IMG/VR virus record: IMGVR_UViG_3300012952_000027
Location: 1-55,345 of that record
Source: a virus
Taxonomy: Duplodnaviria > Caudoviricetes
DNA length: 55,345 nucleotides
Reading direction: 5' to 3' (one strand)
The notes below the pieces were generated by a model. The model was not told the origin of the DNA. It was given only the letters and a program-made list of their open reading frames with translations, and searched no databases. A program made the translations under genes and the position numbers. Shown here in pieces: positions 706 to 55,345 of this stretch (position 1 is the stretch's first letter; each line of letters begins with the position of its first letter).

Positions 706-1248
706 TTATTCGAAGCCGATACCTAGAGCTCCCATGGTCACCTGACCTTTTTTGCTTCGGGTTGGCTTGTTGTTACCATACACCCAAGAAGAATCACTGT
801 AAACCTTAGAATCTTCTCCGCCAAACATTGATCTAATTTCACGTCGAACAGCTTGACGAACCTTGTTTTCAGCAACGGATTGACGCCTTTCTTCTCTCAT
901 TTTGAGAATTTCTCTTCTAAGCATAGACTCATCTATCTCAACAAGCTCTTCATCGCCATGCTTGCCTTCGTCAGCGTCGTCCATTTCTTCCATGTAGTGA
1001 CCCTCTTCCTTTTCATCTTCATCAGCTTCAGCGAATGGTGTTAGCCCGAGGGTCGGGTCAGCGCTCTGATCTTCGCCACCTTCGTGCTCACCTTCAGCGA
1101 GCTGACCTTTTCCAAGTCTAAATTCTGCCTCATCAGATACAGAAGGATCATCGTGCATGCTTCTATTGGAAGCCTCGCTAAGCATTCCAGTCTTACTACC
1201 ATTTGCCACACCGGCAAGTGCAGCAAGTCTATCAGCGTTAAATCTCAT
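706..1248 (-). CDS. acidic hypothetical protein, probably head-associated
   Basis: AAGGAG RBS; E/D-rich; contains IDESMLRREILK and ENKVRQAVRREIR helices of the shared motif. Confidence 0.7.
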   Translation of the reverse strand: MRFNADRLAALAGVANGSKTGMLSEASNRSMHDDPSVSDEAEFRLGKGQLAEGEHEGGEDQSADPTLGLTPFAEADEDEKEEGHYMEEMDDADEGKHGDEELVEIDESMLRREILKMREERRQSVAENKVRQAVRREIRSMFGGEDSKVYSDSSWVYGNNKPTRSKKGQVTMGALGIGFE

Positions 1249-1277
1249 TTTTTAGTCTCCTTAGTAGACAATATTAA

Positions 1278-2069
1278 TTATACACCTAGTAGAGATTTTT
1301 CACTAGAGATTTTTCCTAAGACTATACTAAAGTTTTGCGGGGAAGTTTCCCAGTACTTGATCCTGTTTTTAATTGACGTCTTCTTGTTTTTCTTTCTCTG
1401 CTTTTCTCTATTAAGCATTCTATGCAATTTGGCAAGCTCTTTTTGTCTTGTTGGTTTGCAATCTTTAATTTTGCTCTCAATTATTTCTTGATTTTTCTTA
1501 GCAGATTTTTCAAGCTCTTCAAGGTCATAGGTCAGTTTATCTAAATAGAACTCACTATTGTTGACAACACTTCCCATTAGAACGTTGCACTTTTTCATTG
1601 CTTTAGACTTGATCATAGCTGATCTTCCTCGAGATCCGTTTGCAGGAGGCCTAAAGTCTTCAATTGTTAGATTTTCAAAATGTAAAACTGCAAACTCGTC
1701 AAAAGCAGGAGATGCAACTATATAAATATAGTCAAGGCTACCCTTGGACCTGAGGGTTTCATAATCAGTTTGAAAATTAATCTGGCCAGATCTATTTCTA
1801 GTGGTCAGCTTGCACTCAAGCTCTTTTCCAATAGAGTTGATTACTATGTCTGGCTGACCTGGCCTGCCGTCACAGACAACTCCTTTGTAATGTTTCTCAA
1901 GTTCGTTTGCAAGAAAAGTCTCTTGGGACTGAGAAAGTATACAATTTCTTCTTCCTAAATTTTCTAAAAGATCCATTCCATGATTGGAGAAAGTCTTCAT
2001 GATATCCTCATGAAAACTAACCATGCTACGAGTAGCTGACTCTGCTATTTCTTTTGTAATATAAGACAA
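1278..2069 (-). CDS. PD-(D/E)xK restriction-endonuclease-like protein
   Basis: QE...PDIVI...ELECK catalytic pattern; basic coiled-coil C-terminus. Confidence 0.6.
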   Translation of the reverse strand: MSYITKEIAESATRSMVSFHEDIMKTFSNHGMDLLENLGRRNCILSQSQETFLANELEKHYKGVVCDGRPGQPDIVINSIGKELECKLTTRNRSGQINFQTDYETLRSKGSLDYIYIVASPAFDEFAVLHFENLTIEDFRPPANGSRGRSAMIKSKAMKKCNVLMGSVVNNSEFYLDKLTYDLEELEKSAKKNQEIIESKIKDCKPTRQKELAKLHRMLNREKQRKKNKKTSIKNRIKYWETSPQNFSIVLGKISSEKSLLGV

Positions 2070-2071
2070 GG

Positions 2072-2428
2072 CTAAACATCCGGTAAAAGATTTTTTCTAA
2101 TGTTCTGTGTAATTTCTTGACCTTTTGATGCTGCTAGTTGAAGAGGTTCTAGACCTAAAGCGACTCTAACAGTGTCGTAATCATCATGACTAAGCTTCTC
2201 TTTTAAAACAGCCATATCAGCATACTGATGAAGATCCCACTGTACAACAGGTACATCTTCACCTTCGAGCCCTGGTTCAAACTCACCAGTCTCTCTGCTC
2301 TCAAAGATATATAAGAGTTGAGGCATTTGTTCTTCAGTAGGAACCATGATGAAAGGTAGTTGAGTTGAACCTCCTTCGGAAGTCTCTTCGTACATGATCT
2401 CAGGAACCCATTTGCTATCTTGGGACAT
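2072..2428 (-). CDS. hypothetical protein
   Basis: 118-aa ORF with AAGGAG RBS. Confidence 0.75.
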   Translation of the reverse strand: MSQDSKWVPEIMYEETSEGGSTQLPFIMVPTEEQMPQLLYIFESRETGEFEPGLEGEDVPVVQWDLHQYADMAVLKEKLSHDDYDTVRVALGLEPLQLAASKGQEITQNIRKNLLPDV

Positions 2429-2476
2429 AGTTTATTTCTCCTTATGATTTAATTGTTACACAAAAAGAGAAATTGT

Positions 2477-53622: not shown

Positions 53623-54402
53623 TTAATCGTCAATCAAGTCAGCGAAAGCGTCGTCAAGAGATTTGTATCTTTGACTATCTGCACTAGAAGAAGCCTTTTC
53701 TAAATTACTACTAGTGCTGCTACCTCCCCTAGAGGAATCTTGATCAAAGGATCCGTTTATCCAGTCATTTACGATTTTAGAGAGCTCATCATAAGTCTTA
53801 CACTCATACATCTGGGATACATCTGGGATGTTTTCAAGCCACTGTGACATTTGATCTGAAGAAGTGGAGAGGGGCGTGGTCTTTCCCCTAGGGAGAACTT
53901 CAGTCGTAGTCCACTTCTTTCCAGGCTGCTTTGAGCAGCTCACCTTAATATCGCGACCAGTATTCGGGTCAGTGATGTCGCCGTAGTCTTCATCAAGCAT
54001 AATGTTAAGAAGAGACTGATATACCATCTTCCCAAATCCCCAGATTTGAACACCCCTATCCTCTTCTCCTCGAACAATAACAGGCGCGTAAGTTCTCATT
54101 TTAGGGTAGAGCTTCTTAGCAAGCTCATAAGACTCCTTGGTCCCTTCGTCCCTAAGGGTGTTAATAAGCTCCTGAATTGGATCAGGCTCACCAAACTGCT
54201 TTGGTGAAAGAAGTCCGGGATTATTTCCAATATTATAATAAAACCAGAGCTCCTTAAAAGGTTGCCCATCGTTATCTGGAAAGGAAAGAAGGCGAACAGA
54301 ATAATCTTCACCCTCCTTAGGTCTCCAGTTTTTTGTTTGTCTGCGGTTATTTCCGCTTAGTTGGTTTAGCTTGCGACGAATCGCTTCAAAGTCAACTGCC
54401 AT
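53623..54402 (-). CDS. single-stranded DNA-binding protein, T4 gp32-like
   Basis: VRLL.F, FG..DPI, W.FGK..Y..L, DITD...GRD; acidic C-terminus DDAFADLIDD; AAGGAG RBS. Confidence 0.85.
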   Translation of the reverse strand: MAVDFEAIRRKLNQLSGNNRRQTKNWRPKEGEDYSVRLLSFPDNDGQPFKELWFYYNIGNNPGLLSPKQFGEPDPIQELINTLRDEGTKESYELAKKLYPKMRTYAPVIVRGEEDRGVQIWGFGKMVYQSLLNIMLDEDYGDITDPNTGRDIKVSCSKQPGKKWTTTEVLPRGKTTPLSTSSDQMSQWLENIPDVSQMYECKTYDELSKIVNDWINGSFDQDSSRGGSSTSSNLEKASSSADSQRYKSLDDAFADLIDD

Positions 54403-54484
54403 TTTTAACTCCTTAATGTTTAATGGTTAATGGTTATTGATTAAATTTTAAGTTAACATCGAAAAATATCGGTGTCAACATGTA

Positions 54485-54513
54485 ATAGTAACTTTTAAAT
54501 TTTAAATGTTCAA
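54485..54513 (-). promoter_or_regulatory. sigma70-like promoter of the SSB gene
   Basis: TTGAAC-17 nt-TACTAT. Confidence 0.6.
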
Positions 54514-54514
54514 T

Positions 54515-54706
54515 TTATTTTTTAGAAAATGATTTTGCTCTTTTAACAATATCTCTTGCAGAGTTTGGATCTACCAGGGTTGCACCCCCAAAGAATTTTG
54601 AATTAGACCTAGCTAGATCCTCAAAGTTTCGTCCGGAGCCGAGAGGTCCGACCCATCCAAAACTTCCGGCAGTAGAAGTTGTTGAGGCTTCATTTTTTCT
54701 CTTTAT
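54515..54706 (-). CDS. candidate -1 frame extension of the upstream gene (63 aa, no start codon near its 5' end)
   Basis: IKRKNEASTTSTAGSFGWVGPLGSG...FFGG...SKK* is open in the -1 frame right after A11 and fills the gap to the SSB promoter. Confidence 0.55.
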   Translation of the reverse strand: MKRKNEASTTSTAGSFGWVGPLGSGRNFEDLARSNSKFFGGATLVDPNSARDIVKRAKSFSKK

Positions 54707-55345
54707 TTTTTTTTTTCGTTTTTTACTGCTTCTCTGATGAAGGATCTTAAGGTATCTTCATTGACTCTCGGATGGCTCGTAATTACACCAGCATCGCCTG
54801 TAACCTGCATGACAAAATCTTTAATATAATCTATGTCATCCTGACTAACATCTTCTAAACCTACTCCTGTACCATGAGGATACAGAGAATAAGAAAGATT
54901 AGGCTCAAATACAGCGTGATCCCCGAGAGAAGGCAGATAGGGTGAATCCTTTTTCATATCCTCTAAGTCAATTGACTCTTTAATAAAATCCTTTAGTAGT
55001 TTCTCTACAGACATCTCTTTTCTCCTTGTTTTATGTGTTTTTGTCTCAGCTTGTACTTCCTCTTCGGGTGATTGTTCCAAGGGAATAGAAGTTGCTGACG
55101 GGCTATTTGGATTAAACTGTTGAATATTTGACGTGTTAACATCGACAGTCGACTGATAGTAACCGCCTGCGTCAAACTGTGACGTTGCAACACCCTGATC
55201 ATACCAATATGCCTTTTGGGAATCCCAATCATCTATCATGTATGAAAGAAGTGCAATTCTTCTTGGAACAGCAGTAATAGGTCCTAGCTTTAAAATATCG
55301 CCAGCGACGCTGGCAAGGTCACTTCTTCCTGTGCCTGGTACAGCA
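54703..55345 (-). CDS. hypothetical virion-associated protein (5' end outside the window)
   Basis: Frame is open upstream of ATG 55239 to the window edge; contains EKLLKDFIKES and NEDTLRSFIREAV motifs; ends at A11-TAA. Confidence 0.7.
   Translation of the reverse strand, partial: AVPGTGRSDLASVAGDILKLGPITAVPRRIALLSYMIDDWDSQKAYWYDQGVATSQFDAGGYYQSTVDVNTSNIQQFNPNSPSATSIPLEQSPEEEVQAETKTHKTRRKEMSVEKLLKDFIKESIDLEDMKKDSPYLPSLGDHAVFEPNLSYSLYPHGTGVGLEDVSQDDIDYIKDFVMQVTGDAGVITSHPRVNEDTLRSFIREAVKNEKKK

Follow-up and report, generated by a model that had tools for sequence, protein, structure and literature searches.

Bacteriophage T4 loads its internal proteins into the head by means of an N-terminal capsid-targeting sequence (CTS) of 10–19 residues. 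As described in two published accounts, this sequence binds the scaffolding core and is removed by the protease gp21, which cuts after Glu; the 10-residue T4 CTS suffices to load foreign proteins, T4 Alt undergoes C-terminal processing as well, and T4-related phages contain other proteins with CTS-like sequences (PMC9026906, PMC5694885). Within the T4 CTS, the residues important for targeting are 4 and 7, and those important for processing are 8 and 10 (PMC9026906). Here we analyse a 55,345-bp stretch of viral DNA (IMG/VR record IMGVR_UViG_3300012952_000027, Caudoviricetes), the whole of which we call the window, in which a peptide of about 15–17 residues, the tag, recurs at the termini or domain junctions of unrelated proteins. 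The initial annotation of this DNA had read the peptide as an address that packages an enzyme payload into the capsid. We consider it somewhat probable that the tag is a portable, T4 CTS-like helix for prohead-core targeting or assembly, belonging to a widespread and uncultured jumbo-phage clade whose heads are of the T4 type. In the lineage of the window, the data suggest that enzymes have acquired this helix at either terminus or at the junctions between their domains.

The likeness to the T4 CTS has several aspects. Both are short peptides common to otherwise unrelated proteins, and in the tag lineage a gp21-type protease, a gp22-like scaffold and a Gp23 capsid protein are encoded together in a relative of the window (G001). 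The canonical tag is N-terminal, starts with M-K and ends in phi-phi-x-E; in the T4 record, ipII and ipIII start with MKTYQEFIAE and gp24 starts with MAKINELLRES. When the two are aligned, T4 residues 4, 7, 8 and 10 coincide with tag positions 0, +3, +4 and +6. In T4, too, cargo genes are dispersed rather than placed in the head module, and the ip genes sit among metabolic genes. The tag differs from the T4 CTS in its greater length and its two conserved Arg/Lys residues. In the window it differs further in being mostly C-terminal or internal and in riding on large enzymes (up to 1198 amino acids (aa)).

The jumbo phages SPN3US, phiKZ and 201phi2-1, like the tag lineage, have a prohead protease related to that of T4; in these three phages it cuts after Glu. 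The available text of PMC5694885 gives their cleavage motif as A/S/G-x-E and their propeptides as mostly longer than 100 residues; N-terminal propeptides of giant phages were proposed to serve in prohead targeting, and paralogues with identical N-termini occur. These long propeptides and their motif set them apart from the tag, and a short helix common to unrelated enzymes is not described in those passages (PMC5694885).

The motif strings of the tag occur in no paper found by full-text literature search, and no such tag is described in the portions of text returned. Loading peptides of other kinds resemble it in part. Encapsulin cargo-loading peptides and P22 scaffold fusions use a linker-tethered short terminal peptide or helix, often C-terminal as are six of the window tags, to load unrelated enzymes into an HK97-fold shell. 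They have another consensus and no maturation protease, and encapsulins are not virions. Microcompartment encapsulation peptides are amphipathic helices of about 18 residues that sit at either terminus of unrelated enzymes next to a poorly conserved linker. Their sequence flavour is similar (E-x-L-L-R-x-I-I-x-D/E), but the genomic association of the tag is with phage head genes; no microcompartment shell gene turned up among the scanned proteins, in which no dedicated shell-gene search was made. The CTS concept is known. What is new is the peptide family, how widely it occurs in uncultured jumbo phages, and the fact that it is carried by enzymes and placed internally or at C-termini.

Recurrence and conservation of the tag

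The core pattern [LI]R..[IV]R[EDS] occurs nine times in the 68 open reading frames (ORFs) called in the window (17,769 aa; 65 of the 68 on the minus strand). Per-protein shuffling gave a mean of 0.20 and a maximum of two matches, and none of 300 shuffles reached nine; a looser pattern matched 23 times against a shuffle mean of 3.53 (maximum 9). The recurrence noted in the initial annotation is therefore beyond chance, and all 14 peptides quoted there are present in the minus-strand ORFs to which they had been assigned. Unless marked as belonging to an external hidden Markov model (HMM), bit scores given below come from a matrix of 17 residues that was trained iteratively on the window together with four relatives. 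Ten of the 14 quoted sites score at least 12 bits and three weaker ones align with clear tags in orthologues, so that the list stood for the most part. It lost the site IDESMLRREILK in g706 (ORF 706-1248; 886..936, minus strand), which at −1.8 bits is not accepted as a tag, and it had missed a strong site at residue 370 of g10315.

At a threshold of 14 bits, the matrix finds 50 matches in 540 ORFs; five shuffled sets and the reversed sequences yield no match at all. This result is partly circular, as the window was in the training set. For this reason, an external HMM was built with Dirichlet priors from 190 N-terminal segments taken from other contigs only. It yields five window matches at 4 bits or more (0.10 per shuffle in 20 shuffles, none reversed) and nine at 2 bits or more (0.65 per shuffle, three reversed). 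A strict external matrix, with external seeds and small pseudocounts, placed only two window sites at 6 bits or more against 1.30 in shuffles; we judged that it over-penalises at fixed seed positions, and the HMM was used in its place.

That the motif reflects chance, or a general i/i+4 bias of helical proteins, is scarcely credible. It was defined after the data had been seen, the quoted site in g706 fails, and reversed sequences produce some matches (the three just mentioned and, in the distant relative LR756508.1 introduced below, four at 12 bits or more). Against this stand the shuffled and reversed controls for the core pattern, the matrix and the HMM, and the retention of the tag at orthologous positions. 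In addition, the exact back-translated canonical tag is found in at least 120 IMG/VR stretches, many of them in contigs of 140–293 kb.

Orthologues keep the helix even where the window copy is weak. At the position of the internal site of g3632, a tag-like helix is present in all six homologues, for example SENSLRKMIRTVLFE in G005 (26.0 bits). The N-terminal extension of the Fe/Mn superoxide dismutase (SOD) is kept in 6/6 orthologues, with the SOD domains starting downstream, and reads FTNKNLRDNIRESLGL in G001 and G002 (23.6–27.1 bits). Likewise, the C-terminal helix of g8648, which follows a Pro-rich linker, is kept in 6/6 orthologues. The C-terminal tag of g3632 is more labile, being kept in L005, degenerate in L001, L002 and L004, and absent in L003 and L006. 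Codons at identical tag residues agree in 109 of 272 pairs, where codon usage predicts 110.9. A DNA repeat or mobile cassette as the origin of the copies was rejected, since nucleotide identity does not exceed this expectation, and selection acts on the protein.

The tag consensus is [IL]-[TSN]-[EKR]-x-[QE]-L-R-x-[ILFM]-[IV]-[RK]-E-[EA]-[LI], with hydrophobic positions 0, +3/+4 and +8 and with Glu at +6 among the most conserved residues; the preceding linkers are of Ser/Pro/acidic type. The amphipathic character first ascribed to the helix is borne out by the helical hydrophobic moment, which for 11 of 12 window tags lies at or above the 91st percentile of random 12-mers. AlphaFold2 models of g31255 (mean predicted local distance difference test score (pLDDT) 57.0, 4-row alignment) and SOD (40.5, 6 rows) were too poor to judge the tags as free helices. 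A high moment and a terminal position after a flexible linker would also suit a membrane-targeting helix of the MinD/FtsA type, which could recruit proteins to the inner membrane, the site at which assembly of T4-type proheads begins; membrane nucleation of T4 proheads is described in PMC9026906. We regard such a role as very improbable. The 12 window tags have a net charge of −1 to +3 and a mean hydrophobicity near or below zero, conserved internal copies exist, and the strongly conserved Glu at +6 departs from the MinD/FtsA pattern of a cationic polar face without conserved acidic residues.

Carrier proteins and portability

The helix is portable, as the initial annotation had held. In two of the three g31255 orthologues (L003 and L006), the catalytic core aligns throughout and both tags are absent. 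The g7230 and g3632 genes are separate in the window (stop codon at 7230-7232, next ATG at 7228), while in L001, L002 and L004 a g7230-like enzyme is fused in frame to a g3632-like protein (1429–1439 aa; frame around 9161-13483) and the junction is free of a tag. Homology between g45680 and a 980-aa protein of G004 begins at residue 61 of the former, and the G004 protein carries an N-terminal tag of 29.7 bits. Tags lost or moved among these homologues mark the helix as an add-on gained and lost at termini and junctions.

Tags in the window are C-terminal in six cases and internal in four or five; N-terminal copies are confined to g2477, g31255 and SOD (Table 1). The true start of g2477 is likely the ATG giving MSSNNQKD.... 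Carriers comprise a 1198-aa protein with ligase-like, Pol X-like and nuclease-like parts (g3632), two nucleotidyltransferases, the Fe/Mn SOD, a GapR-like DNA-binding protein, an HExxH protein and several others. In g3632, a conserved N-terminal block contains a K-M-D-G motif, which we take to be ligase/capping motif I; residues 496-598 resemble Pol X of African swine fever virus (E 5e-5), and a conserved C-terminal domain contains an E-V-K motif. The protein looks like a multi-domain end-repair enzyme, presumably akin to LigD-type ligase/polymerase/nuclease proteins. The GapR_DNA-bd domain of g10315 spans residues 394-442. An HxGH-like motif is present in g7230, whose only PHROG match is a weak one to NMNAT (0.0026).

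The cargo labels of the initial annotation fit SOD and the NTP_transf_2 nucleotidyltransferase g31255; the nuclease and zincin labels are putative, the candidate zincin, g45680, showing an HEYIH (HExxH) motif at residue 221 and no family match. Pfam and PHROG searches gave no family for g706, g2477, g8648, g34265, g45680 or g54703, and a PDB sequence search returned nothing for g7230 or g45680. The replication and nucleotide enzymes of the window are untagged by the matrix. DnaE, ribonucleotide reductase (RNR), helicase, RecA and thymidine kinase (TK), from whose termini the helix had been reported missing, score no higher than 6.4 bits, and the same ceiling holds for the FEN-type exonuclease, gp32-like single-stranded DNA-binding protein (SSB), ThyX and dCMP deaminase.

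Table 1. Tag sites and promoter-like elements in the window. Scores are in bits.
Feature	Sequence	ORF	Position	Strand	Matrix	External HMM	Remarks
N-terminal tag	NQKDILRYFIRESLLAE	g2477 (2477-3400)	3302..3352	-	24.7	not recovered	
C-terminal tag	QLAETLRKLIREIL	g3632 (3632-7228, 1198 aa)	3635..3676	-	24.1	2.6	after Ser/Pro-rich linker
Internal tag	QVNERNMRNIIKQIFKE	g3632	4952..5002	-	4.5		residue 745, between Pol X-like segment and C-terminal domain
C-terminal tag	QNEAYLRAFVRSVIRG	g7230 (7230-8066), HxGH-type nucleotidyltransferase-like	7233..7280	-	19.9	not recovered	kept in 4/4 unfused orthologues
C-terminal tag	QVKESIRQRVRELMKG	g8648 (8648-9334), acidic low-complexity protein	8651..8698	-	22.2	not recovered	
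Internal tag	AEIEEIRKMIREETLAS	g10315 (10315-12243)	11098..11148	-	24.5	5.2	residue 370, precedes GapR-like DNA-binding domain
Weak internal site	ISESALRMFLESVSDDE	g10315	11860..11910	-	6.1		residue 112; G002 orthologue there LSESKIRESVRMILEAD, 20.8 bits
N-terminal extension	IKNSEIANIIKESLGLD	Fe/Mn SOD (14553-15260)	15201..15251	-	10.5		
N-terminal tag	DTKRLLRQLVREIAARD	g31255 (31255-32061), NTP_transf_2 nucleotidyltransferase	32005..32055	-	28.6	11.4	best external HMM match in window
C-terminal tag	VKESRVIEIIREELLS	g31255	31258..31305	-	12.6		G005 orthologue 26.5 bits
C-terminal tag	LNENELRKIIRDAFTTR	g34265 (34265-34840)	34277..34327	-	26.0	8.4	after basic Ser/Pro-rich linker
Tag after N-terminal segment	EAANLIRSFVRSVILES	g45680 (45680-46876)	46655..46705	-	18.5	not recovered	residues 58-74, after 56-aa Lys-rich N-terminal segment
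Internal tag	SVEKLLKDFIKESIDLE	g54703 (54703-55239), upstream of gp32-like SSB gene	54961..55011	-	19.7	7.7	
C-terminal tag	VNEDTLRSFIREAVKNE	g54703	54715..54765	-	24.8	4.6	
Promoter-like elements			8067-8119, 25635-25689, 29066-29120, 32517-32556	-			4/6 minus-strand matches; shuffles 0-2

Two further observations concern the surroundings of g31255 and its relatives. A calcineurin-like metallophosphatase gene (30593-31258, plus strand), the only one of the three plus-strand ORFs with a family match, converges on g31255, with a 4-base overlap at the 3′ end of the latter. In L054 (4062-7394), two neighbouring paralogues of 521 and 582 aa bear a tag-like helix at both ends, N-terminal ...LRALIESVLLES... 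and C-terminal ...SESRLRNLIRRMI; an HhH-GPD homologue adjoins the pair, an arrangement also seen for g31255 in the window.

Tags and head genes in relatives

Besides the replication and nucleotide genes named above (DnaE, helicase, RecA-like protein, gp32-like SSB (PF08804), FEN-type exonuclease, RNR, ThyX, TK and dCMP deaminase), the window encodes the Fe/Mn SOD, a ClpP homologue, an amidase and tail-like proteins. Among 50,697 phage records there is no close cultured relative; tblastn against the same records gave three weak partial matches for g3632 and none for g45680. IMG/VR relatives are 58–68% identical in the 1198-aa g3632 protein. One of them, the 114,967-bp G001, has the SOD-to-gp32 synteny in common with the window and is 38% complete by CheckV, which makes the window roughly one fifth of a jumbo phage genome of about 300 kb.

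On this single contig, G001 combines the window-like genes from SOD to the gp32-like SSB with a T4-type head module. The module encodes TerL, a portal protein (phrog_213, 2.5e-73), a 284-aa protein (p284), a prohead protease (Peptidase_S77, PF03420, 2.1e-25), four small proteins, a 494-aa protein with 24% Asp+Glu and a Gp23-type capsid protein (PF07068, 1.1e-78). The acidic 494-aa protein lies between the S77 protease and Gp23 and has at least 1598 metagenomic homologues. The 161-aa ORF next to the S77 gene is the second-best match of the external HMM (9.8 bits; 0.0 shuffle matches at 8 bits or more). Both the S77 and Gp23 families are present in two of five records searched (G001 and LR756508.1), the other three being 20–28% fragments. 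The gp21-type protease supposed in the initial annotation is thus found in relatives, while the protease of the window itself, g46890 (46890-47492, minus strand), situated between the RNR gene and g45680, is a ClpP homologue (PF00574, 1.7e-23). A first PHROG impression of g46890 as a head maturation protease was rejected on this ground.

An association of tags with head genes is found in LR756508.1, a 484-kb uncultured distant relative with the same head genes. A scan of its 781 ORFs found 30 tags in 28 ORFs, with none in shuffles. Twenty-five of the 30 lie between 120 and 220 kb (binomial P = 3.5e-13), the region that holds TerL, portal, S77 protease, scaffold, capsid protein, neck, sheath and tube. 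No tags occur at 0–120 kb or 220–380 kb, home of gp32, RecA, FEN, helicase and RNR. Arrays of tagged ORFs of 87–180 aa flank the protease gene on either side.

The same clustering around the prohead protease gene is seen in IMG/VR, where we examined the context of 80 loci out of the at least 120 stretches. In at least five of them (L071, L108, L111, L116 and L124), the protease gene has tagged ORFs as immediate neighbours. Head genes were found at 22 loci (portal at 19, TerL at 17, S77 protease at 13) and neck or tail genes at six; 39 loci had none of the queries. The tag is carried by 271 of 1038 ORFs, with a median tagged ORF of 126 aa, and tandem arrays of small tagged ORFs are frequent (seven in 2.5 kb in L083, five in 1.3 kb in L121). 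The commonest form in relatives is the N-terminal M-K-I-T-x-x-Q-L-R-x-I-I-K-E-E. N-terminal copies account for 209 of 291 tags at these loci and 19 of 30 in LR756508.1, and C-terminal ones for 7 of 291 and 1 of 30.

ClpP homologues occur in G001, LR756508.1 and L054 as well as in the window, and degrons are typically terminal tags at either end of unrelated proteins. The tag might on these grounds be a degron or adaptor signal for the phage ClpP homologue and a host unfoldase, limiting the lifetime of tagged proteins. This appears quite improbable to us, given that the tag is a conserved helix of 15–17 aa that also occurs at internal sites and is kept there (g3632, 6/6 homologues), and that tags cluster with head genes and not with clpP, which in LR756508.1 lies at 34 kb in a tag-free region.

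Helices related in style to the tag are also found in the head proteins. All 14 S77 proteases examined (G001 95403-96017; L049-L124) have a conserved C-terminal amphipathic helix of their own after a variable linker, such as ...DRINRLLNEVLDEE, ...IDQLFNKILRD and ...EQLIHDIITEK, which is distinct from the tag and may be the protease's own core-targeting piece. The acidic scaffold-like family (G001 91913-93397; 53 aligned) has an invariant N-terminal helix, ...T-P-x-I-R-x-F-I-E-E-Q-L, a sequence similar to the tag, with Glu standing where the tag has its second Arg/Lys. A complex prediction for the G001 scaffold-like protein (53 rows) and a segment (residues 7-66) of a tagged protein from the same contig gave no answer (score 0.00) and counts neither way. 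Elsewhere in G001 (78461-84718), two tandem paralogues of 1015 and 1057 aa resemble a single 824-aa protein of the LR756508.1 sheath region.

A proposed capsid address and its alternatives

If the tag is a head-loading address, an amphipathic helix tethered by a flexible linker would dock in the scaffolding core during prohead assembly, and any carrier would be enclosed with it. Core binding, packaging, cleavage and injection are steps that we infer by analogy with T4. Under the T4 rule of cutting after Glu in (L/I)-x-E, the prohead protease would cleave within the tag, at its conserved I-[KR]-E, which fits gp21 cleavage after Glu as described in PMC9026906, or at an [LV]-x-E just before C-terminal tags. 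The freed cargo inside the head could then exit with the DNA at infection. An [ILV]-x-E whose Glu falls at +6 is found in most N-terminal tags (206 of 218), in 64 of the 81 internal tags and in 9 of the 16 C-terminal ones; g7230 is without this Glu. A second [ILV]-x-E, ending at −3/−2, precedes 7 of 16 C-terminal tags against a per-position background of 0.019, and in the window takes the forms LAE, VKE, LNE and VNE. These counts arise partly by construction of the matrix, and the patterns were picked after the data had been seen.

Several results weigh against a capsid role. The CTSs of T4 ipI, ipII and ipIII gave no positive match with the matrix or the external HMM, so that the likeness to T4 consists of the pattern phi-x-x-phi-phi-x-E and the M-K start only. 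Cleavage at I-R-E would leave a C-terminal tag attached, and it is the C-terminal or internal position that prevails in the window, unlike the N-terminal majority outside it. Head genes are absent from the window, which means that the link to the head runs through relatives, and in G001 most tagged genes lie 60–90 kb from the head module. The preference for virion over replication genes, looked for on the strength of the initial annotation, is plain in LR756508.1 and blurred in IMG/VR, where 13 of the 80 loci have replication or nucleotide genes. The matrix, besides its partial circularity, also matches KVKEKIRRMRRSGLRTR (31450-31500; g31255 residues ~200-216), probably a false positive, as it lies inside the conserved catalytic core, which untagged orthologues have too. 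The T4 late-promoter motif, as we take TATAAATA to be, gave five matches in the window where 3.09 were expected, none on the coding strand. What speaks for the capsid role is sequence context.

Some of the opposing evidence bears on a more specific alternative, in which the tag is a generic docking or oligomerisation helix, such as a short coiled coil, that joins proteins to one another or to a cytoplasmic hub, for instance a repair or nucleotide complex, and has no capsid role. The hydrophobic positions are heptad-like and the hydrophobic moment is high. Tagged window proteins are mostly nucleic-acid enzymes (Pol X-like, NTP_transf_2, GapR-like). A promoter-like element, TGTAAA followed after 16–17 bases by a TATAAT-like hexamer, ends 7–23 nt upstream of g7230, DnaE, g28124 (dUTPase-like) and g32076 (HhH-GPD); that the tagged g7230-g3632 operon and DnaE have the same element hints at co-expression with replication genes. 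The external HMM fails to recover four of the strongest window sites (g7230, g8648, g45680 and g2477), which may therefore represent a different helix class. The invariant I-R-x-F-I-E-E-Q-L helix of the scaffold makes helix–helix assembly plausible in general. Small tagged ORFs near head genes would, on the docking account, be a separate use of a similar helix. We nevertheless think a pure docking function unlikely. It leaves unexplained why small tagged ORFs should form arrays right beside the prohead protease gene, it is at odds with the placement of 25 of the 30 LR756508.1 tags in the structural block and none beside replication genes, and DnaE, helicase, RecA, gp32, FEN and RNR are untagged.

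Returning to head targeting, a bolder form of it can be put forward only tentatively: the tag would be a position-independent address helix, at work at either terminus or at a domain junction, by which a cosmopolitan clade of uncultured, T4-headed jumbo phages packs a variable kit of enzymes and small proteins into its capsids, to be co-injected. As part of that tentative proposal, the injected kit of the window phage would include the LigD-like ligase/Pol X/nuclease protein, the nucleotidyltransferases, SOD and the HExxH protein. A tag of this kind, if real, would be a functional viral counterpart of the encapsulin cargo-loading peptides.

Should the tag prove to be a head-loading address, the packaged and injected proteome of a large group of uncultured jumbo phages would become readable from sequence alone. 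T4-style capsid targeting would then also cover tags placed internally or at C-termini, and cargo such as large enzymes of repair and redox chemistry. Small tagged ORFs in tandem arrays would become candidate genes for injected proteins that counter host defence, in the manner of T4 IPI, and the tag itself could serve as a short, portable peptide with which foreign proteins are loaded into large capsids.

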